Shown here: piece after piece, positions 662 to 11,233 of the stretch
Numbering within the stretch: the stretch's first letter is position 1
Layout: each line of letters begins with the position of its first letter
Assembly: GCA_009780675.1 (NCBI GenBank)
Contig: WQZP01000001.1
Span: 6,327 to 70,326 of the forward strand
Source of the DNA: Spirochaetaceae bacterium
GTDB taxonomy: Bacteria > Spirochaetota > Spirochaetia > CADAEX01
DNA length: 64,000 bases
Reading direction: 5' to 3'
Program-made: the position numbers and the translations under genes
The notes under the pieces: generated by a model
Databases searched by the model: none
The model's input: the letters and a program-made list of their open reading frames with translations, nothing else
Told to the model about the DNA's origin: nothing

Positions 662-2003
662 TCCTGGAGAGAGCAAAGTGAATGTAAAAACAAATCTGAA
701 TTTTGATTTTTTAATTCTTATAAGCGTTATCTCTCTTGTATTTATAGGGGTTTGCTTTATATATTCGAGCAACATTACTTCGGATGGAACAATCCTTTCA
801 AATGAATACACCAAGCAAATTGTTTGGGCTTTGATAGGTCTTGTTTTAATGGCAGCTATAATCATGTTTGATTATAAAACTTTTGAAACTTTTGCAATCT
901 ATATATATTTGGTGTCTATTGTTCTTCTTGTTATTACTCTGCTTTTTGGAAATGTGGTGAATGGTTCCAGAAGATGGCTGGGAATAATGGAGTTTGGAAT
1001 TCAGCCTTCGGAATTTGCGAAAATAACTACAATAATATTGCTGGGAGCATTTTATGCAAAAAACTCCAATGCTATGACAAGGATAACAACGTTACTTAAA
1101 GGGTTTTTAATAATTTTGTTTCCTGTTGTATTAATAGTTCTCCAGCCCGACATGGGTACTGCATTGGTTTATTTTCCGATTTTTCTGGTTATGAGTTTTA
1201 CTGCTGGCGCAAAAGTGCGACATGTTATGTATATTGCTTTAGTAGGAATACTTACAATGGTTTTAATAGTAATACCTGTGTGGTTTAGGCATATATATAG
1301 CGGAAGCGAAGCTGTTATTAACTTTTTTGTTGATTCCAGATTTTATTACATTATATTGATTTCCGGTCTGGCAATTATGGCCATATCGCTTTTCGCATAC
1401 TTTTTTACAAAAAAGGGATTTTACTATTATTATTTTACATATTTTTCATCAATAATTGTGATTTCAACTATAGGAGCAATTATTGGTAAGATGGTTTTGA
1501 AAAGTTACCAGATTATGAGGCTGGTTATATTTCTTGATCCTAACATAGACCCAAGAGGCGCGGGCTGGCATTTTATACAATCCATAACAGCTGTAGGGTC
1601 TGGCGGTATTTTTGGTAAAGGTTTTTTGAATGGAACCCAGAGCAATCTCAGGTTTTTGCCACAGCAGTCAACAGATTTCATTTTTTCAATAATCGCAGAA
1701 GAGATTGGTTTTATGGGATGCCTTTTGGTTTTTTTCCTGTTTCTTATAATTATTGTGCGGGGCTATATGATTGCTATAGCTGCAAAAGATTTGTTTGGAA
1801 CAAATTTAGCCAGTGGAATTTCTACAATGATCCTTTTTCATTTTATGGTTAATATTGGAATGACTATAGGGATAATGCCTATAACAGGTATACCGCTTTT
1901 TTTCATCTCTTATGGTGGGTCATCTTTGTGGACTGCCATGATAGGCGTTGCGCTGCTTATTAATGTTTACTATAGACGGTATAGGTTTTCACTGAATGCA
2001 TAG
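639..2003 (+). CDS. mrdB: SEDS-family peptidoglycan polymerase RodA/FtsW; an alternative GTG start at 678 sits behind the RBS GGAGAGAG
   Basis: About 10 TM helices. RWLGIMEFGIQPSEFAKI and DFIFSIIAEEIGFMG are SEDS hallmarks. The gene directly follows PBP2, which fits RodA rather than FtsW. Confidence 0.85.
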   Translation: MSGTLGHNPGESKVNVKTNLNFDFLILISVISLVFIGVCFIYSSNITSDGTILSNEYTKQIVWALIGLVLMAAIIMFDYKTFETFAIYIYLVSIVLLVITLLFGNVVNGSRRWLGIMEFGIQPSEFAKITTIILLGAFYAKNSNAMTRITTLLKGFLIILFPVVLIVLQPDMGTALVYFPIFLVMSFTAGAKVRHVMYIALVGILTMVLIVIPVWFRHIYSGSEAVINFFVDSRFYYIILISGLAIMAISLFAYFFTKKGFYYYYFTYFSSIIVISTIGAIIGKMVLKSYQIMRLVIFLDPNIDPRGAGWHFIQSITAVGSGGIFGKGFLNGTQSNLRFLPQQSTDFIFSIIAEEIGFMGCLLVFFLFLIIIVRGYMIAIAAKDLFGTNLASGISTMILFHFMVNIGMTIGIMPITGIPLFFISYGGSSLWTAMIGVALLINVYYRRYRFSLNA

Positions 2004-4512
2004 TGGTCTCGCGGAAAAAGATATTAGAGCTATACTAATGCAGGTGGAAAATCCCGGCCGCTATGCAGGCGGCGAATATGGAAGCCACAATAAAAATGCG
2101 CAGGCTGTGTTTAAAATAGCTATATCATATCCTGATATGTATGATATAGGGATGGCGAATAACGCTGTAAGAATACTCTATAACTTGTCGAATAGTGTTG
2201 ATAATGTTGTGTGCGAGAGGGTTTTTGCCCCTGCGCCTGATTTTGAAAAAGTCTTAAAAGAATCATCACTGCCATTGTTTACTCTTGAGAATAATATCCC
2301 GCTTTGCGATCTTGATATGCTTGGATTTACTTTTGGTTATGAACTTACTGCGACAAATTTATTAAATATTTTAGATCTTGGAAAAATTCCTGTTTATAAT
2401 TCCTGCAGGGATAAAAATCACCCTATAATTATTGCCGGAGGGCCAGGTGTTACAAATCCTGTTCCATACGGAGACTTTATAGACCTCTTTTTTATTGGAG
2501 AGGCTGAAGAAGAATTTGAAAAACTTCTTTGCAAAGCAGTTGAGCTAAAAAAAGCAGGCGCAGAAAGAGATGAAATTTTTTCAATGATGGCTAAAAGCGA
2601 GAATGTGTGGCACAAAGGGAAAAAGGAAAAAGTATGCAGGGCAGTGTATGGCAAATTCTCCGAAGAATATATAAAAAGAAAATATAACCTTGTCCCATCG
2701 GTAAAACCTGTGCAGGATAATGGTGTAGTTGAAATAATGAGGGGCTGCCCCAATGGATGCAGATTTTGCCATGCAGGTTTTTTCTATAGGCCAAAAAGGG
2801 AAAAGGATTATAAAATAATTGACAGGGAAATCGAAGAGTTGGTTTTTGAAGCTGGTCATAGGGAGATAACTTTATCTTCTTTATCTTCGGGCGATTATTC
2901 ATCTGTAGACAATATTATTAAAAAATTAAATAAAAAGTATTCAGGGCTTGGGGTTTCTTTTTCATTACCTTCGCTAAAAATTAATTCATTTACAGTATCT
3001 CTGTTGTCAGAAATAGGGGAGGTTAGAAAGAGCGGTCTTACATTTGCGGTTGAAACTCCGGACCCAGCTTCCCAAAGAGGGATCAATAAAGAAATTAATA
3101 TTGAGCAAACTATTGCAATTATTAAAGAGGCAAAACTTTTAGGGTGGAGGGTCGCAAAATTTTATTTTATGCTAGGCCTCCCTTCTGTATATAAAAATTC
3201 CAATGATGAGGAACTCTATTATCAGGAAAGCGACAATATAATTAATTTTCTTTTTAAAATTCATGGAGCAACAGGCATAGATATAAATGTAAATATAGGA
3301 ACATTTGTTCCTAAACCTCATACCCCTTATCAGTGGGCAGCGCAAATGAAAGAAGATGCAGCCATGAAGCAGATACACTATATAAGAAACAGGCTCAAAG
3401 GGAAAAATATAAAAGTTGGTTACCATTCTCCAATGATGTCATTTGTTGAAGGGGTATTTTCCCGTGGCGATGAAAGAACAGGTAAGCTCCTTTTTGATGC
3501 ATGGCAAGCAGGCGCAAAATTTGACGCGTGGGAAGAGCATTTTGATATGGCACTATGGAAAAAAGTTATAGAATCCCAAAGCTGGAATGTAGAGGAAGAG
3601 ATAGCCAGAGAAAGAGATATTGCAGAAAAATTCCCATGGTCTGGAATATCAATGAATATATCTGAAAAATATCTGCTTGATGAATATGACAATTCATGTA
3701 ATTCAAAACTTACGCCAAAATGTGAAACAGTATGCGCGCATAACTGTGGAGTGTGCGGCTGCAATGCTGGAATTGTAAACTCTGAAATAAAAGAGGAAAC
3801 AGGTGTTGAGGAAGATATTGTTTATTCGCTTGGAAAAGGCGAGGAGAGATATAGGGTAATATTTAGTTTTTTTAAAAAAGGGAAACAGATATATCTTGGG
3901 CACCTGGATATTTTAAGGCTTTTTGAAAAAGCTTTTCAGAGAAGCAGGCTTGGTGTGAGATTTACAGAGGGTTTTAATCCCAAACCTAAACTTGAGTTTG
4001 CAAATCCGCTGACTCTTGGAGTGGAATCTGAAGGGGAAATTGCATCAGTGGAAACTTACTTGGAATATGACAAGGATCAATTTGTAGGGAAATTAAATGA
4101 CGCTCTTCCCGCTGGAATCAAGATAATAGATGCTTTTTCCCATAAACTTAATTGCGGGAATAAAAAAATATCACTGATGTCTCTTTACACCGGAAGTGTG
4201 TACAGGATTTATTTTCCAAAAGATGAATGTTATAGAAGTTTGCTGGAAGAATATATATGTGGAAATTCGCTTGACGAGTCTGTAAGGCTGGAGGAACTTG
4301 AGGGTTCTGATGATTCTGCTAACGATGCTGGGGTTGCCTGGTCTGGTGTGCGGGTGAGGATTGCTGTAAAGCCGGGGAGCAAAAGTCTTTTTAAAATATT
4401 GAAAGAAGCATTGAATTTGGAAGCTCCTCTTTCAAAAGTTATTGCAATACGGGAAGAAATTTTTGCAGGAGAGGGTTTAAGGAATTATTTTTCGTTTTTT
4501 AGGAAAGCTTAG
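1996..4512 (+). CDS. Radical SAM protein (TIGR03960-like, B12-binding-like N-terminus) fused to a DUF2344 C-terminal domain
   Basis: CPNGCRFC is a Cx3Cx2C radical-SAM cluster motif. The 838-aa length and C-terminal region fit a TIGR03960 plus TIGR03936 fusion. The start overlaps the rodA stop by 8 nt. Confidence 0.75.
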   Translation: MHSGLAEKDIRAILMQVENPGRYAGGEYGSHNKNAQAVFKIAISYPDMYDIGMANNAVRILYNLSNSVDNVVCERVFAPAPDFEKVLKESSLPLFTLENNIPLCDLDMLGFTFGYELTATNLLNILDLGKIPVYNSCRDKNHPIIIAGGPGVTNPVPYGDFIDLFFIGEAEEEFEKLLCKAVELKKAGAERDEIFSMMAKSENVWHKGKKEKVCRAVYGKFSEEYIKRKYNLVPSVKPVQDNGVVEIMRGCPNGCRFCHAGFFYRPKREKDYKIIDREIEELVFEAGHREITLSSLSSGDYSSVDNIIKKLNKKYSGLGVSFSLPSLKINSFTVSLLSEIGEVRKSGLTFAVETPDPASQRGINKEINIEQTIAIIKEAKLLGWRVAKFYFMLGLPSVYKNSNDEELYYQESDNIINFLFKIHGATGIDINVNIGTFVPKPHTPYQWAAQMKEDAAMKQIHYIRNRLKGKNIKVGYHSPMMSFVEGVFSRGDERTGKLLFDAWQAGAKFDAWEEHFDMALWKKVIESQSWNVEEEIARERDIAEKFPWSGISMNISEKYLLDEYDNSCNSKLTPKCETVCAHNCGVCGCNAGIVNSEIKEETGVEEDIVYSLGKGEERYRVIFSFFKKGKQIYLGHLDILRLFEKAFQRSRLGVRFTEGFNPKPKLEFANPLTLGVESEGEIASVETYLEYDKDQFVGKLNDALPAGIKIIDAFSHKLNCGNKKISLMSLYTGSVYRIYFPKDECYRSLLEEYICGNSLDESVRLEELEGSDDSANDAGVAWSGVRVRIAVKPGSKSLFKILKEALNLEAPLSKVIAIREEIFAGEGLRNYFSFFRKA

Positions 4513-4556
4513 CTTGGGAGTTTAGTTCGGAAAAGCTTAGGTCAGGAAAGTTTAAG

Positions 4557-5366
4557 TCAAGAAAGTTTAGCTTCTTCCCATAGTTTGTCCATTATTTCAA
4601 GATTTTCATGCGTCATATTGATTCCCTTCTCTGCCATCCCTTTTTCAACTTTTTTAAAACGGTTTAAAAATTTTTCATTTGTTCTATGAAGAGCTATGGA
4701 TGAGTCGATTTTAATAAATCTTGCCATATTGATAACCGAGAAAAGAATATCTCCAAGTTCTTCTTCGATTTTATCTTTATTTATATTTTCCGCAGCAAGT
4801 TCATATTCAAGTTCATTTATTTCTTCTTTTACTTTTCCAAGCACATCTTCAACCTTATTCCAGTCAAAGCCTGCTTTGGCAGCTTTTTTTTGCAGCCTAT
4901 AAGCTCTTTCCAGCGGTGGGATACTCTTTGAGATACCATCAAGTCTTGATTTTGTTTCTTCGTTATTTTCTGGTGCATTGCTGTTGGCAGCTTCGTTTTT
5001 TTTGATTATCTCCCAGTTTGTGATAACTTCGTCCGGAGTTTTTGCAGTGGTATTGGAAAACACATGAGGATGTCTCCTTATAAGTTTTTCCGATACTCTG
5101 TCTATTACTTCTTTAAAAGTAAAAGCATTTTCTTCTTCTTTTATTCTGACAATAAAACTTACTACAAGCAGAATATCGCCAAGTTCTTCTGCTGTATGGA
5201 AGTCATCATTTTTGGATATAGCTTCTATACATTCATATACTTCTTCGAGCAGATTGGTTCTTACAGAGTTTGCTGTTTGCTCCTTGTCCCATGGGCACCC
5301 ATCTTTGCTTCTTAATTTGATTATTACATTATAAAAATTCTCAAAGGATTTTAGTAGGTCGTTCAT
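4557..5366 (-). CDS. mazG: Nucleoside triphosphate pyrophosphohydrolase MazG; the ORF extends to 5516, but an internal Met at 5366 with a GGAGAAA RBS is the likely start
   Basis: Tandem MazG motifs: EEVYECIEAI, ELGDILLVVSF, RRHPHVF, ELGDILFSV. Confidence 0.85.
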   Translation of the reverse strand: MNDLLKSFENFYNVIIKLRSKDGCPWDKEQTANSVRTNLLEEVYECIEAISKNDDFHTAEELGDILLVVSFIVRIKEEENAFTFKEVIDRVSEKLIRRHPHVFSNTTAKTPDEVITNWEIIKKNEAANSNAPENNEETKSRLDGISKSIPPLERAYRLQKKAAKAGFDWNKVEDVLGKVKEEINELEYELAAENINKDKIEEELGDILFSVINMARFIKIDSSIALHRTNEKFLNRFKKVEKGMAEKGINMTHENLEIMDKLWEEAKLS

Positions 5367-5490
5367 TTTTCCATTTCTCCGCATATAACAGGATGTGTTT
5401 TTTATAGTCTCTATTTTATAGATGATTTTTTCAAGATTAATTTTGACAAGTATTGGATAATATAATACTCTAAACGCATGAAACTTATCG

Positions 5491-5751
5491 GTGTTAAAAA
5501 TGAATAGAAGAATCATATTAATTATACTTTTTGTGTTGATTGCAGGTTATATGTTTACGCAACTTGAACCTGCTGAACTTAAAGAAAAATTCACGACGAT
5601 CCACCCTATAACTGCAATAAGTTTAGTTATTATAGTCGCCTACATAGTAGTCAGAATAAAATACAAGAAAAAGCAGACAGAAGAAGATGAAGCAGATTCC
5701 ACTAAAAGTGAATCCCCAGCAGATTCTGATAAAACGGCAGAGGATAAATAA
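5491..5751 (+). CDS. Small 2-TM membrane protein with an acidic C-terminal tail (hypothetical)
   Basis: Two hydrophobic helices followed by a TEEDEADSTKSESPADSDKTAEDK tail. Its 3' end and downstream region form the left copy of a ~160-bp direct repeat. Confidence 0.35.
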   Translation: MLKMNRRIILIILFVLIAGYMFTQLEPAELKEKFTTIHPITAISLVIIVAYIVVRIKYKKKQTEEDEADSTKSESPADSDKTAEDK

Positions 5752-5777
5752 AGCCATCTCAAATTAAAAAATGATGG
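5620..5777. repeat. Left copy of a ~160-bp imperfect direct repeat; the partner copy is at 7451-7611
   Basis: Hand alignment of ...agtcgcctacatagtagtcagaataaaatacaagaaaaagcagacagaagaag...ataaagccatctcaaattaaaaaatgatgg against ...agtcgcctaaatagatagttagaataaaatacaagaaaaaacaggcagaagaag...ataaagccatctcaaacaaaatgaaatgg gives roughly 75% identity with indels. Confidence 0.75.
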
Positions 5778-5794
5778 AGAATTTCCACCGAATT

Positions 5795-5885
5795 CAGTTA
5801 TTAAGGATTACTTAATAACTGCCGCTGATGGCAAGTAAAATGATGTTACTTATCTTTAACTTTCTATAATAGAAAGTTAAAGATA
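5795..5885. promoter_or_regulatory. Two perfect hairpins at the left insert junction: 11-bp stem cagttattaag/cttaataactg (5795-5821) and 14-bp stem tatctttaactttc/gaaagttaaagata (5851-5885)
   Basis: Exact inverted repeats read from the sequence. They lie 3' of both the small ORF (plus strand) and the Mrr-like gene (minus strand), so they could be terminators and/or recombination-site structures. Confidence 0.5.
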
Positions 5886-5976
5886 AATTTGCTTAGATAA
5901 ATAATTATAAGTAAAAAATACTGGATTGAAAAATACCGAAAAGATATTGGCGAAAATTAAGCTTTCAAAAACATTA

Positions 5977-7056
5977 TTAAAAACTTTCTGGAACAAGGGC
6001 TAATTTATTTATAGACTCATGCACTCTGACAAGGGCATCATATACTGCCAAAACATCATCCGAGTTCCATGTGCGTAAAGATTTTTCATCAATTACACCC
6101 TTGCTTTCAATAATTATTTTCTCAAGTTGAGCTTCATCAGCAACAGCAACAACAGCTTGTACTGCCGCATTGCTTTGAGCTTTTTTCAGGTTTAGAATCA
6201 GGCTGTCAATTGATCCTTTAGACTGCACTTCAAAGACGTAAATGGCTTTGCCCATGTTTCCAATTTTGGCTTCCCATACGGCATCTACAACTGCACCTGA
6301 GGCAATGTGTACTTCAGAGCGGCTTTCAAAACCTAGAAGCTCTCCGATTGATACAAGTTTTTCTTTAATTTCATCATGAAGTGATGTTAATTCTTTATTG
6401 GAAATTTTTACAGTATCAATGGTTTTTTCAGTTATTGATAGTACTTTCTTTTCTGCAGATGGCAATACCTCATCCCAAAGGAAGTAATCCACCGACAACA
6501 GATCTGCTTCTTTGATGCCACTTTTAATAAGCCGAGAGGATATTTCTTTTGCAATGCTGCATATTTCCAGATATTTTTTACCAGTATACTGATAGTTGTA
6601 CTTTGGCATCCCATCAATCTCGAGGTATGTAAAACACTGGATTGTAGTCTTATTAAGAATTACATATTCTTGTGGGTTGATATACATTAAAAGTTCGCTT
6701 ATGGTTGCAGGCCCAAAACCTTTAACATCTTTTAAGAAATTATCCCAGCGGGTTTCGATTGGATTTGTGTTAAAAAGTAATTCGGTTAATCGTTTCTTTA
6801 GATTTTCAAACCCATTATCTGCAACAATTTTATCCACTATATATTTTTTATTGCCCCAAATGAGCATTGACCAAAGCTTGCTGATATATTCATAGAAAGC
6901 CTCTACAGTCATTCCTAGAAGTTTATCTTCTGAAAAAGACTGATAATATTCTCTTCGTTCTTTTCGTTCTGCTCTCTGCTCGGAATAATATGTGGGATTA
7001 GTTTCTTGTTTATTTTTATAGTTTTGTATTGCTGTTTGTAATTTTATATCATGCAT
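5977..7056 (-). CDS. Uncharacterized protein with an N-terminal HhH(-GPD-like) DNA-binding module and a C-terminal Mrr-type (PD-(D/E)xK) restriction endonuclease-like domain; candidate modification-dependent nuclease
   Basis: N-terminus: LKDVKGFGPATISELLMYINPQEYVILNKTTIQ resembles the HhH-GPD helix-hairpin-helix (G-h-G..tA..iL), but the usual Asp position holds Asn. C-terminus: VVDAVWEAK...AIYVFEVQSKGS matches the Mrr_cat pattern D...(I/V)xVQxK. A GGAG lies 10 nt upstream of the ATG. Confidence 0.6.
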   Translation of the reverse strand: MHDIKLQTAIQNYKNKQETNPTYYSEQRAERKERREYYQSFSEDKLLGMTVEAFYEYISKLWSMLIWGNKKYIVDKIVADNGFENLKKRLTELLFNTNPIETRWDNFLKDVKGFGPATISELLMYINPQEYVILNKTTIQCFTYLEIDGMPKYNYQYTGKKYLEICSIAKEISSRLIKSGIKEADLLSVDYFLWDEVLPSAEKKVLSITEKTIDTVKISNKELTSLHDEIKEKLVSIGELLGFESRSEVHIASGAVVDAVWEAKIGNMGKAIYVFEVQSKGSIDSLILNLKKAQSNAAVQAVVAVADEAQLEKIIIESKGVIDEKSLRTWNSDDVLAVYDALVRVHESINKLALVPESF

Positions 7057-7227
7057 TAGTCCTAATCTCCATCGACATTCAGAATTATAATTAGAAGGAT
7101 ACTAACTTCTTAGAAAAATAACAATCGCAGATTACAACAGGATTAATTGTCTGTTGTTATTAAATACAGGAGGGCATACTGTCAAATTCAACGCTTAGAG
7201 GAAGAGAGAGTTTTTATTTTTTAAAGA

Positions 7228-7409
7228 TCAGCTCCAATCGATGTCTTCGTGTCTGGTGTATTTGCCTTGCTTAAGCGCTTCCCTGCCTGCATGAATAGCT
7301 TCTACTTCATACTCCGCACCTAATAGTTTTTGGAATCGCTGATAGACATCTTCATCAAAGCAGGAAATTTGCCATACGTATTCCAAGAAGTCTACACGCT
7401 AGTCTTGCT
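7228..7409 (-). pseudogene. Open frame without an ATG start (possible TTG at 7396), encoding (L)EYVWQISCFDEDVYQRFQKLLGAEYEVEAIHAGREALKQGKYTRHEDIDWS; likely a gene remnant inside the inserted segment
   Basis: Manual translation of the minus strand. The frame is bounded by a stop at about 7410 and TGA at 7228. There is no Met, and the ORF is too short for the supplied ORF track. Confidence 0.3.
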
Positions 7410-7450
7410 ATGGAAGCTAAAAAAGATGGCGTATTTCTTAACCAATATGC

Positions 7451-7611
7451 GCTTTATCAATTAAGTAGTCGCCTAAATAGATAGTTAGAATAAAATACAA
7501 GAAAAAACAGGCAGAAGAAGCTGAGGCAAAATCCGCTAAAATGAATCATCAGCAGATCCCGATAACCCATCTCCCCCAAAAAAATAAAGCCATCTCAAAC
7601 AAAATGAAATG
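7451..7611. repeat. Right copy of the ~160-bp direct repeat; a decayed duplicate of the 3' end and downstream region of the 5491-5751 ORF
   Basis: Aligns to 5620-5777. Its coding frame is interrupted by stops. It ends about 13 nt before the 3' end of tRNA-fMet. Confidence 0.75.
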
Positions 7612-7624
7612 GCTTGTTTTGTGT

Positions 7625-7697
7625 TAGCAGGGGCAGGAGTTGAACCTGCGACCTCCGGGTTATGAGCCCGACGAGCTGCCAGCTGCTCTACCCTGCG
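7625..7697 (-). tRNA. tRNA-Met (CAU), initiator-like
   Basis: The reverse complement CGCAGGGTAGAGCAGCTGGCAGCTCGTCGGGCTCATAACCCGGAGGTCGCAGGTTCAACTCCTGCCCCTGCTA folds as a cloverleaf with anticodon CAT. Three consecutive G-C pairs close the anticodon stem, and position 1-72 is mismatched (C1/U72), both initiator hallmarks. It is close to E. coli tRNA-fMet, and CCA is not encoded. Confidence 0.85.
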
Positions 7698-7831
7698 GCA
7701 TCTGAGTCATTAATATACGGATATTAAGTAGTTGTGTCAATAAGATAAAGGCTATTTTTATAACTATTACAAAGATTTAGCTGTTTTCATAAAAATATTC
7801 TATAAAAGAGAATCTTTTATAGCAGCATAGG

Positions 7832-8551
7832 TCAATTTGTATCTGTTTTCTCGGTTGTATCAGCATTTTGAGAAAGTTTATATAACCTATATCCTGCCAA
7901 TAAAAGCAAAGGTATTGCCAGGAAAGAAATAAAAGCTTTTAAAGAAATCAAAAAATTATACAGGCCATGAATTAAAAATGCTTCTCCAAAACCCCGTACA
8001 TTGCTAAATTTTTTGGAATGAATAATTTTTACAGAGAAATATCCGATGATCCCTGCTGTTATTATATGAAGCGGTATGGCGCTGAATAGTCTAAACATCA
8101 CAACAAATGAGGCATCAAGACTATACATGATATTTTCAAGACATGCAAAGCCAGTTCCCACAGCTACGGCTGTAGCAATCCCATCTCTCAAGTTGTTTAT
8201 TTTTCTAATAAAAAACAAGATTTGTATTACCAAAAATTTTGTTGCTTCTTCTACAAGAGAAGCTATAAAAAATGCATCAATAAAAGTTTTAAATAAACCA
8301 GTTGCAGCCCCGGTTTTGATTGACAGCAGGTATATAATAAAAATAGCAGGATAAACTGCGCAGAGTCCGGTTATCATTGATATTAATATTTCTTCTACTT
8401 TTAGATTACTTTTGCGAAAAAGAATTATAAAAATAAGAATTCCAAATAAAACTGAAAGCAGAACATTGATAAATAAATTTCCCATAATTAATTTAAACCA
8501 GATTGTATAATATGCTTCATATAAAGTCGATACCTGAAAAAATATTACCAA
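7832..8551 (-). CDS. prsW: PrsW-family intramembrane glutamic protease (the ORF begins at TTG 8551; an ATG at 8485 is an alternative start)
   Basis: Polytopic membrane protein carrying the PrsW motifs EEATK (EExxK), FACLEN and a downstream HGLYNF (HxxxN). Confidence 0.55.
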   Translation of the reverse strand: MVIFFQVSTLYEAYYTIWFKLIMGNLFINVLLSVLFGILIFIILFRKSNLKVEEILISMITGLCAVYPAIFIIYLLSIKTGAATGLFKTFIDAFFIASLVEEATKFLVIQILFFIRKINNLRDGIATAVAVGTGFACLENIMYSLDASFVVMFRLFSAIPLHIITAGIIGYFSVKIIHSKKFSNVRGFGEAFLIHGLYNFLISLKAFISFLAIPLLLLAGYRLYKLSQNADTTEKTDTN

Positions 8552-8647
8552 GAAAATAAATTTGACTACTGCTTTTTAATTTTTTATCTTTTATTATGAA
8601 GAATATTACAAAAGATAGTAAAAAATATAATAAGTACAGAGGGAATT

Positions 8648-11233
8648 ATGAGATATGATAAGCTTACTATTAAGGCAGAAGAAGCAATACAAAGTGCCGA
8701 AACAATAGCGCATAAATATAATAATCCGGAAATTGCTATAGAACATCTTCTTTATGTTTTATTGACTCAAAAAGATGGTGTTATCCCTCCGCTTGTTGAT
8801 AAACTTGGCGTAAGCAAAGATATGCTTATTTCTGATGTTGAACAAGCTATTATCTCTAAACCTAAGGTATATGGAGATGATACAGTAATAAATATATCTT
8901 CCGAAGTTAGTAAAATTCTTAACAGGTCAGAAAAAGAAGCAGAAATCTTAAAAGATGAGTATATAAGCACAGAACACATTTTTCTTGCTATTCTTGAGTC
9001 AGGAACAAAGATCGGAGAGCTTTTAAAAAAAGCTGGAGTTAGCAGAAATGATGTTCTTAAAACACTGGTCTCGATAAGGGGAAACCAGCGTGTTACAGAT
9101 CAAAACCCCGAAAACAGGTATCAGACCCTGGAAAAATATTGCAGAGATCTTACTATTCTTGCTGCCAAGGAAAAAATAGACCCAGTAATAGGGAGAGATG
9201 AAGAAATCAGAAGAGTTATGCAGGTTCTCTCAAGAAGGACCAAAAATAATCCTGTATTGATAGGGGAGCCTGGAGTAGGAAAAACAGCAGTTGTTGAAGG
9301 GCTTGCAAGGCGAATAGTTTCCGGAGATGTGCCGGATTCACTTAAAAACAAAAAGTTACTTGCTCTTGATATGGGAGCTCTGGTAGCAGGCGCAAAATTC
9401 CGGGGAGAGTTTGAAGAAAGATTGAAAGCAGTAATTAATGAAATAACACAAAGTGATGGCGAGATAATCCTGTTTATAGATGAGCTCCATACCCTTATGG
9501 GCGCAGGAGCTGGAGAAGGGGCAATGGATGCTTCCAACTTGCTAAAGCCAGCGCTTGCACGCGGAGAACTTAGGTGCATTGGCGCTACAACGCTTGATGA
9601 ATACAGAAAACATATAGAAAAAGATGCTGCTTTTGAAAGAAGATTCCAAACAGTTTTTACCAAAGAGCCAAGTGTTGAACACACAATAGCAATACTTAGA
9701 GGGCTTAAAGAACGTTATGAGATCCATCACGGAGTGCGCATAAAAGACGAAGCAATAATCGCTGCTGCCACACTTTCAAATAGATATATCACTTCAAGAT
9801 TTTTGCCGGATAAAGCAATTGACCTTGTTGATGAAGCTGCAAGCAGGCTTAAAATGGAAATAGAAAGTCAGCCTACTGAGCTTGATCAGCTTGAAAGAAA
9901 AATGCTCCAACTTAATATAGAAAAACAGGCGCTCTCAAGAGAAGAGGACCAGGGATCAAAAGAGCGGCTTGCGGTTCTTGAAAAAGAACTTGCAGAGATA
10001 AAAACAAAAAGAGATGCAATGCAGCTTCAGTGGCGCAATGAGAAAAAAGTTATTGATGAGATCAGGAATTTAAAACAGAAAATCGAAGATCTTAAAATCG
10101 AAGAGACAAAATATGAGCGCGAAGGTAATCTTGCAAAAGCTGCTGAGATAAAACATGGACTTCTTCCTAAAGTTAAATCTGATTTGGAACAGAAAAGTAT
10201 TGAGCTCGACAAAGTCCAGGCAGGAAATGTATTGCTGCAGGAAGAGGTTGGGGAAGAGGATATTGCGCAAGTTGTCTCCACGTGGACAGGGATACCTGTT
10301 GCGAAAATGCTTTCCTCTGAAATGCAAAAATATCTTAATCTTGAAGATACTCTTGTGTCCCGTGTTGTGGGGCAGGATAAAGCAATAAAATCAATTGCAG
10401 ATGCTATAAGAAGAAACAAGACAGGGCTTTCGGAAGAATCAAAGCCGTTAGGCGCTTTTATTTTTATAGGACCTACGGGTGTGGGGAAAACAGAACTCGC
10501 AAAAGCCCTTGCGGAATTTCTTTTTAATGACGAGAAAGCTCTTACAAGGATCGATATGAGCGAGTATATGGAAAAGCACTCTGTATCAAGACTGATAGGA
10601 GCTCCTCCGGGATACGTGGGATATGATCAGGGTGGGCAACTTACAGAAACAGTTAGAAGGCGGCCATATTCTGTAATTCTTTTTGATGAAATTGAAAAAG
10701 CGCATCCAGATGTATTTAATGTAATGCTTCAGCTTTTTGATGAAGGGCGACTTACAGACGGGCAGGGGAGAGTTGTAGATTTTAGAAATACAATAATTAT
10801 AATGACAAGCAATATTGGAAGCGATTATATCCTTAATGCAACAAAATTGGATGAGGCAAAAACACAGATCGATAAACTCCTTAAAGCATCGTTTAAGCCG
10901 GAGTTCCTTAACAGGATTGATGAGATAATAATGTTTAACCGCCTTGAAAAAGAACAGATCGAAAAGATTATTGATATAGAACTTAACAAACTCGTGAAGA
11001 GGGTCAAGTCAAAAAAATATACTATTGTATTTACAAAAAAAGCAGAAGAGTTTCTTGTGGAAACAGGATATGATCCTCTTTTTGGAGCAAGACCTCTTAA
11101 AAGAACAATACAAAACTATGTTGAAAACCCTTTGGCAAAACTTATTTTATCAGGTTCGTTTTCCGAAGGAGATGCAATAAATGTTGATTTAAAAGATGGT
11201 GAACTAAAGTTTGTTAAAAAGAAAAAACAGTAG
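8648..11233 (+). CDS. clpB: ATP-dependent chaperone ClpB
   Basis: 861 aa with an N-domain and two AAA+ modules. Walker A motifs [15 protein letters not shown] and [15 protein letters not shown], a long coiled-coil M-domain, and a ClpB C-terminus. Confidence 0.95.

Follow-up and report, generated by a model that had tools for sequence, protein, structure and literature searches.

How did a lone nuclease gene come to lie between a small membrane-protein gene and an initiator tRNA gene, with the same gene end on either side of it? The locus belongs to a 64,000-nt stretch of contig WQZP01000001.1 of a Spirochaetaceae bacterium (hereafter, the window), in which housekeeping genes flank it on both sides. 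A first-pass annotation had described it as a small, decayed islet next to a tRNA and had suggested a satellite or a defense islet. Here, we compared the window with loci of related contigs, which were fetched for comparison and are referred to by L-numbers (L001, L004, L088–L101, etc.). The explanation that we favor, with moderate confidence, is a recombinase-less defense islet of ca. 1.7 kb that entered by a single crossover into a hotspot between the small gene and the 3′ side of tRNA-fMet. The earlier description of a small, decayed, recombinase-less defense islet beside a tRNA was borne out by an uninterrupted flank in relatives, by varying cargo, and by the END-type fold of the nuclease.

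Two copies of a gene end bound the 1.7-kb segment

The same 136 bases of the small gene occur in direct orientation on either side of the segment (Table 1), with 79–85% identity and three small indels. Alignment of the two copies using MAFFT gave a mean column identity of 83%, the ungapped blocks being 60 nt at 87%, 23 nt at 91%, and 15 nt at 93%, and the copies start 1833–1836 nt apart. When the 64-kb window was compared with itself using BLASTN, this pair was recovered at 78.9% identity over 147 columns (E = 1e-25), and no third copy was found in the window. Since it is a single pair in 64 kb at this E value, the repeat is neither dispersed nor a chance match. A common intergenic repeat was ruled out by the presence of only two copies in the window. 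The sole other self-match of the window was a weak inverted repeat (18813–18865/22911–22963; 77% over 53 nt, E = 5e-4).

The repeat had been annotated at 5620–5777 and 7451–7611. This extent held for 5633–5768 and 7466–7604 and failed for the outermost stretches (5620–5632 and 7451–7465), which were only ca. 50% identical when counted on the alignment. The left copy diverges at 5768/5769, within the loop of a terminator hairpin, and the right copy has an abrupt start at 7466, midway through helix 2 of the encoded protein. Left–right similarity stops 14–21 nt short of the tRNA 3′ end, as had been noticed earlier. Because the repeat belongs to the 3′ end of a protein gene and the tRNA 3′ end lies outside it, the locus is not a classical tRNA att duplication, and the first-pass annotation was right on this point. 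The right copy carries a nonsense codon (TAA, 7474–7476), a +1 insertion at ca. 7481, and a −1 deletion in an A-run at ca. 7540, together with an in-frame +3 near 7565 and a stop codon at 7585–7587.

The right copy keeps the ancestral junction with tRNA-fMet

The small gene encodes 83 aa when read from the ATG at 5500, or 86 aa from the GTG at 5491, and its product consists of two hydrophobic helices and an acidic tail. Only five homologs of this protein were found, all from similar metagenomes; a metagenome pattern scan for relatives of the gene, whose patterns were poor, returned two loci. The N-terminus and the helices are conserved in L004, L088, L090, L091, L092, and L094, with AGAATAAAATACAAGAAAAA as the most conserved stretch, and the tail evolves fast.

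When the 3′ ends of the small genes were aligned, the ancestral order 3′ of the stop codon was a hairpin (AAGCCAT-loop-ATGGCTT), then TTTTGTGT, and then the tRNA 3′ end. L004 and L089, in which the small gene is single and linked to MazG, have an intact small gene that runs through the full terminator into TTTTGTGTTAGCAG without interruption, as in the right copy. In L100 and L101, the tRNA is followed by the identical hairpin and a short remnant of the small-gene tail. Within the window, this terminator is complete only at 7587–7615, and the left copy has just its first 17 nt. The right copy, whose flank is ancestral sequence contiguous up to the tRNA, is the one that keeps the ancestral junction of gene tail, stop codon, terminator, and tRNA-fMet. 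These arrangements are best explained by the ancestral order MazG (leftward), small gene (rightward), bidirectional terminator, tRNA-fMet (leftward), and PrsW (leftward). The two-junction structure is what would result from the insertion of DNA that brought along a version of the last 136 bp, and differs from that expected of a simple decayed copy. In the terminator scan, the 7587–7615 hairpin scored on the minus strand, where a T-run follows; we read the hairpin as a two-way terminator, the plus-strand side of which continues with GTTTTGTGTT.

The right copy had previously been taken for a simple decayed duplicate. This view was abandoned, since the copy retains the ancestral junction and its tail, with one frameshift and an in-frame 3-nt indel, reads as a coding allele that has diverged. 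Starting at the 20-nt identical core, its frame gives RIKYKKKQAEEAEAKSAKNESSADPDNPSPPKK after restoring one A; with this A restored, the copy reads ...KQAEEAEAKSAKNESSADPDNPSPPKK and terminates at the stop codon that the left copy uses as well. Of the three indels between the copies, one is an in-frame triplet. The shared stop codon and the in-frame indel indicate that the tails diverged largely as coding alleles.

Over 7466–7565, the left copy is 94.0% identical to L090, the right copy is 88.9% identical to L090, and the two copies are 84.8% identical to each other; L090 is the nearest relative of the left copy. When variable sites were polarized with five outgroups, four derived states were common to the left copy and L090, one or two to the right copy and L090, and none to the left and right copies. 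From so few sites, it can only be suggested that the right copy split off before the window lineage and L090 separated. They likewise hint at an old insertion event or at the arrival of one copy from another lineage.

The interval is a hotspot in related loci

The nearest loci come from metagenome-assembled genomes (MAGs) with isolate names like Lab288 and Cu122, which are presumed to be of termite-gut origin. The cargo of the interval differs in every relative examined. In L090, a P-loop protein gene begins exactly after the stop codon of the small gene. Downstream of the small gene, L092 has RlaP and the start of a serine recombinase, L091 has Fic twice, each time downstream of a small-gene copy, and L094 has a sigma-factor fragment along with other genes. 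Toward the tRNA, L096–L101 share the conserved order ClpB, PrsW, and tRNA-fMet. After tRNA-fMet, the terminator, and a tail remnant, L100 carries an island (5994–10648) with a tyrosine integrase, an HTH_17 protein, a DUF6922/AbiEii pair, and an IS256-like transposase fragment; a search of the fetched L100 DNA gave no att repeat at the far end of this island. L096 and L098 have other terminators and open reading frames (ORFs) that resemble, by eye, short or truncated N-termini of integrases.

The breakpoints lie at the stop codon in L090, at 5768 in the window, and ca. 30 nt before the stop codon in L100, and these differences argue against one fixed core site. Synteny with L001–L003 ends at the start of MazG (window 5381). 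RsmI adjoins MazG in L001 (7235–8804; order TsaE, TsaB, RsmI, MazG) and L004 (3102–3866), and the small gene stands in its place in the window; therefore, the left side of the small gene is also a synteny breakpoint. Further small-gene copies occur after CsrA (L088 and L091) and after PrsW (L094), and L091 has a second, start-less copy 6.5 kb away. The interval is a lineage-wide hotspot of rearrangement and insertion.

Defense hotspots without a recognizable mobile element have been described in Escherichia coli (PMC10121019) and, as core defense hotspots, in Pseudomonas (PMC10250203). The spirochete hotspot resembles them in its fixed flanks, in its varying defense or toxin-like genes (END, AbiE, Fic, NucS_C protein, and RlaP), and in means of mobilization that are often not identifiable. 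It differs in that it was drawn from a handful of termite-gut-type metagenome contigs, not from a pangenome.

L096 (8618–9355) encodes a 245-aa protein with DUF7669 and NucS_C in the same tRNA-fMet hotspot, a candidate for a second, different PD-(D/E)xK defense gene. The fragment in L094 (2480–2760), which lies 3′ of the PrsW-linked small gene, resembles by eye the C-terminal region 4 of a sigma-70 factor. In L004, a direct repeat of ca. 60 nt (CATTGAAATATCATTG.AAGAA.GC...; ca. 2140–2200 and ca. 1000–1060, minus reading) brackets a 277-aa OmpA-like gene. The first copy of this repeat abuts TAGCAG...AGGAGT, which resembles a degenerate 3′ fragment of tRNA-fMet, and the gene and its repeats may be another islet at the same tRNA.

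The cargo gene encodes a probable END-type nuclease

The nuclease gene is the only intact gene of the segment, as annotated in the first pass, and its exact 359-aa product has been recorded as a "hypothetical protein" of a Spirochaetaceae MAG. The protein had no direct family in Pfam, NCBIfam, PADLOC, or PHROGs, and searches of PDB sequences with one sequence and two profiles gave chance matches only. We modeled it using AlphaFold on a diverse alignment (pLDDT 91.8, pTM 0.86); an earlier AF2 model from a shallow alignment had left the C-terminal domain unresolved. The N-terminal domain (ca. residues 1–205) has an Ogg2-like helix-hairpin-helix fold with SsOgg, MjOgg, and Tm Ogg (Tm1821) as its best structural matches. 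The C-terminal domain (ca. residues 225–359) matched AF1548, NucS, BamHI, NgoMIV, FokI, and other PD-(D/E)xK nucleases. PF21790 was matched by 8 of the 46 members of the nuclease family. In the family alignment, the conserved residues of the nuclease domain are D258 and E276-V-Q/H278, the third motif thus being E-x-Q/H instead of E-x-K; the third motif of BglII resembles E-x-Q/H. In the motif GFGPATISELL...VILNK, Ala117 stands by eye at the Lys position and the near-invariant Asn135, 18 residues later, at the Asp position, a spacing that we take to match that of K120 and D138 in E. coli Nth. The N-terminal domain appears to be devoid of the glycosylase Lys and Asp.

END nucleases, which consist of an inactivated EndoIII/Ogg sensor fused to a nuclease, cleave the DNA of phages when it contains modified bases (Yee et al. 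2025, bioRxiv, PMC12191111). Among them, END-Mag (MDV2503288) is a NucS-like PD-DExK/iEndoIII fusion that restricts phages with modified G, and its best structural matches are SsOgg, MjOgg, and Thermotoga Ogg (PMC12191111). The three best sensor-domain matches of the window protein are identical to those of END-Mag, which was compared by its published description. The window protein and its family likewise fuse a PF21790-type Ogg/EndoIII helix-hairpin-helix to a NucS-like PD-(D/E)xK domain. The window gene is also a single gene without a methyltransferase, and it is solitary in L081 and L095 too. The founding member, END-PaCF1, carries its PLD nuclease N-terminally and its sensor C-terminally, whereas the window protein has an N-terminal sensor and a PD-(D/E)xK nuclease. 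From its fold and the literature, we infer that the 359-aa protein fits the END nuclease architecture. Non-canonical bases would be sensed by the Ogg2-like base-flipping domain, which is apparently without catalytic activity; cleavage of the DNA by the PD-(D/E)xK domain would follow, and phages with modified genomes would be restricted without a methyltransferase.

The label "Mrr-like" given to this nuclease earlier was only loosely correct, as to the PD-(D/E)xK domain. Identity with Mrr was rejected because there was no match to the catalytic or N-terminal domain of Mrr in Pfam or NCBIfam (E ≤ 0.1) or in PADLOC. Mrr and type IV enzymes have in common with the window protein a PD-(D/E)xK domain, a modification-reading domain, and the lack of a methyltransferase. 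However, their reader is a winged helix, whereas that of the window protein is a glycosylase-derived helix-hairpin-helix.

We obtained 2,088 homologs of the nuclease, the best 120 of which are 71–77% identical; the few organism-named ones among these 120 are from Firmicutes, Clostridia, and this spirochete. The family comprises ca. 850 clusters at 50% identity, mostly of 340–370 aa, and its members are all unannotated ("hypothetical protein"). Copies occur on a plasmid of Monoglobus pectinilyticus (70% identity) and on archaeal plasmids (29–35%), and no relatives were found in viral-contig scans. The unusual conservation and the plasmid copies suggest frequent recent transfer under strong constraint. 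A widespread unannotated protein family is now placed in the END nuclease class, and, as modeled, it would be a good candidate sensor of modified phage DNA in gut communities.

Homologs are solitary between housekeeping genes in L081 and L095 and lie beside a type III restriction-modification system in L082. The DNA homology of these three loci to the window is limited to the nuclease ORF, and no long direct repeats flank the homologs there. The repeat was therefore rejected as a hallmark of END-gene mobility. Because the homologs lack flanking repeats and similarity stops at the ORF ends, the repeat belongs to this locus, not to the nuclease gene.

Origin of the islet

In the favored explanation, foreign DNA would have entered via a single crossover within the last 136 bp of the small gene, either att-like and site-specific or of the RecA-type Campbell kind, and would have brought its own allelic version of these 136 bp. 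The small gene would have been kept intact on the left (5633–5768) and a second copy stranded on the right (7466–7604) with the terminator and the tRNA. The stranded copy would then have acquired the nonsense codon and frameshifts, and mobility genes, if any, would have been lost later. Such a loss fits the leftover start-less ORF and the palindrome, which is found elsewhere upstream of Fic genes. A crossover in the 3′ end of the protein gene, whether att-like or homologous, is still the model that fits best.

In classical att duplication, islands enter a tRNA or protein gene at the 3′ end, and the copy that they bring along makes the gene whole again (Williams 2002, as cited in PMC10121019). 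The present locus is like these islands in that the repeats are the 3′ end of the target gene, one copy keeps the target intact, the site is on the side of a tRNA, and the cargo is variable. It is unlike them in that no integrase was found, the repeat lies in a neighboring protein gene, the copies are ca. 80–85% identical, and the composition of the segment is not atypical. We judge the islet to be of an ordinary kind, i.e., a decayed single-gene defense islet in an integration hotspot, with cargo of a recently described class. Its insertion mechanism is not new. It serves as a worked example of a one-gene defense islet that persists at a tRNA-side hotspot after its vehicle is gone, with a duplicated gene end as the scar.

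Several points weigh against this explanation. The repeat copies agree over at most 20 consecutive nt, with no long core of identity; in classical att repeats, the copies are usually identical. L090, with which the left copy groups, differs in cargo and breakpoint; therefore, either copy could be the incoming one. As to the empty site expected from the first-pass annotation, gene tail, terminator, and tRNA flank are uninterrupted in L004/L089 and L100/L101, and none of the fetched relatives had a true empty site with small gene, terminator, intact tRNA, and PrsW on one contig. L004 has just a degenerate tRNA 3′ fragment at the site. The segment is indistinguishable from its surroundings in composition, with a G+C content (GC) of 0.345; among same-size windows, its GC is in the 22nd percentile and its tetranucleotide distance in the 30th. 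The compositional foreignness for which a test had been proposed was rejected on these two profiles. Neither a recombinase nor a remnant of one was found in the segment when the nuclease and start-less ORFs were scanned, shorter ORFs not being scanned. Since these two ORFs have no family match, this agrees with the first-pass annotation, which had seen no integrase or transposase. A tblastx comparison of the non-coding parts of the segment with all fetched loci gave the palindrome only and no recombinase. Small-gene paralogs elsewhere in related genomes (L091 and L094) leave a paralog or rearrangement origin alive. As for the cargo, the loss of the glycosylase residues is based on motif spacing by eye, not on a residue-level structural alignment.

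A different route would be import from a related strain, in which a linear donor fragment, homologous on the left, was joined illegitimately at 7465/7466 without any site-specific element. We regard this as unlikely, though the lack of a recombinase in the segment, the variable breakpoints among relatives, the start-less ORF that abuts the right junction as if cut, and a donor-like composition typical of the clade all suit it. The most similar END homolog (77%), like most related loci, also comes from the assembly series ERZ272572xx-273xx. Against these points, integrase-bearing islands use the interval in relatives (L100 and possibly the truncated integrases of L096 and L098). Import predicts the same final structure as the single crossover, and the present data cannot separate the two.

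It is distinctly unlikely that the copies are two old paralogs of the small gene, one beside MazG and one convergent with tRNA-fMet, the second having lost its 5′ part through deletions and cargo turnover. Relatives do have several small-gene copies in differing contexts (L088, L091, and L094), and small-gene neighborhoods are synteny breakpoints; the branch of the right copy appears older than the split between the left copy and L090, and the two tails differ as coding alleles do. However, L004 and L089 have a single MazG-linked small gene joined directly to the terminator and the tRNA-side flank, which points to one ancestral gene, and the break of the left copy in the terminator loop after 17 nt looks like an insertion junction.

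We give little credence to a further possibility, that the small gene is a dedicated landing pad with paralogous copies in each genome. Single-gene modules (END nuclease, Fic, RlaP, and P-loop ATPase) would be swapped at it without a resident integrase, with the 37-nt palindrome as a recombination site at the module ends. If true, this would be an undescribed cassette-exchange system, loosely like integron attC or plasmid pdif modules. An integron cassette itself was rejected for want of an integron integrase and because the palindrome does not occur at other small-gene loci. A phage satellite, as suggested earlier and as would span several kb with integrase, replication, and helper-hijacking genes, was not supported: the 1.7 kb holds a single defense gene, the viral-contig scans gave no relatives of the gene or of the palindrome, and nothing else spoke for it.

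Tandem duplication of the gene 3′ end in place, with decay of the downstream copy and later insertion of unrelated DNA, is very improbable: the copies are direct and cover the same 136 bp, but the left and right copies have no derived states in common as against four for the left copy and L090, the in-frame indel and shared stop codon point to coding constraint rather than decay, and two independent events at one spot would be required. An assembly artifact joining two strain variants is scarcely credible, for although the source is a MAG, the region is strain-variable, and the related contigs L088 and L090 end here, the junctions lie outside shared k-mers, 1.7 kb of unique sequence with an intact gene separates the copies, and the exact protein is recorded on two contigs (the longest 157.6 kb) and in several databases.

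Other features of the segment and its flanks

Besides the intact gene, the segment contains a start-less ORF and two perfect hairpins (5795–5821 and 5850–5886), all of which had been annotated correctly (Table 1). Outside the nuclease ORF, its DNA homology to the fetched loci is confined to the palindrome element, which is 83–86% identical to two copies in L091 and has a fold energy of −18 to −20 kcal/mol (z = −5.3 to −7.0). Each L091 copy lies just upstream of the promoter of the Fic gene that follows a small-gene copy, and a 37-nt perfect palindrome recurs at the end of both Fic modules. The element is absent from the small-gene loci other than those of L091. Its role could be that of an operator or a recombination site, or it could be left over from an earlier Fic module.

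The two L091 modules (3006–4570 and 9511–11130) are 86% identical over 1,281 nt. Each consists of a small-gene copy, a convergent Fic gene, a promoter that is sigma-70-like by eye (TTGACT-17-TATAGT), and the 37-nt palindrome, at which the duplicated stretch ends. The second small-gene copy has ATA for ATG.

The start-less ORF had no match in Pfam, NCBIfam, PADLOC, PHROGs, plasmids, phages, or the fetched loci. Judging from its position, it is possibly the 3′ remnant of a lost gene that was cut near the right junction. A 77-aa gene upstream of the L082 homolog was rejected as its ancestor, showing no resemblance by eye. The hairpin at 5773–5789 and its T-run, which spans the left junction, probably terminate the nuclease gene; upstream of this gene, a weak promoter-like match was seen by eye only.

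Table 1 Features of the islet and its flanks in the window.
Feature	Position	Strand	Remarks
Radical SAM enzyme gene	1996–4512		ORF and profile search
MazG gene	4557–5369	minus	Housekeeping flank, left
Small membrane-protein gene	5500–5751	plus	Intact; target gene of the insertion
Left repeat copy	5633–5768 (5773)	plus	Second half of helix 2, tail, stop codon (5749–5751), and first 17 nt of the ancestral terminator
Inserted segment	5769–7465		1,697 bp; homology lost sharply at both ends
Short G+C hairpin with T-run (5763–5772)	5773–5789	minus	Terminator scan
Perfect hairpin	5795–5805/5811–5821		11-bp arms, 5-nt loop; fold z = −4.2 for 5745–5835
Palindrome element	5833–5920		Core, perfect 18-bp inverted repeat (5850–5867/5869–5886)
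Nuclease gene	5977–7056	minus	359 aa; only intact gene in 5769–7465
Start-less ORF	7228–7395	minus	ca. 55 codons, ends ...HEDIDWS*; four in-frame stops upstream
Right repeat copy	7466–7604 (7611)	plus	Displaced 3′ end of the small gene
Bidirectional intrinsic terminator (AAGCCAT...ATGGCTT)	7587–7615		Between the convergent small gene and tRNA; terminator scan and fold
tRNA-Met (CAT)	7625–7697	minus	ARAGORN; Rfam, 59.8 bits; 3′ end faces the islet
PrsW gene	7832–8551	minus	Right flank
ClpB gene	8648–11233		Right flank

The tRNA was the sole match of window positions 5000–8200 to Rfam, and the GGG/CCC anticodon stem marks it, by eye, as the initiator type. A near-consensus promoter (TTGACA-17-TATATT) lies immediately upstream of tRNA-fMet, at 7712–7740 on the minus strand.

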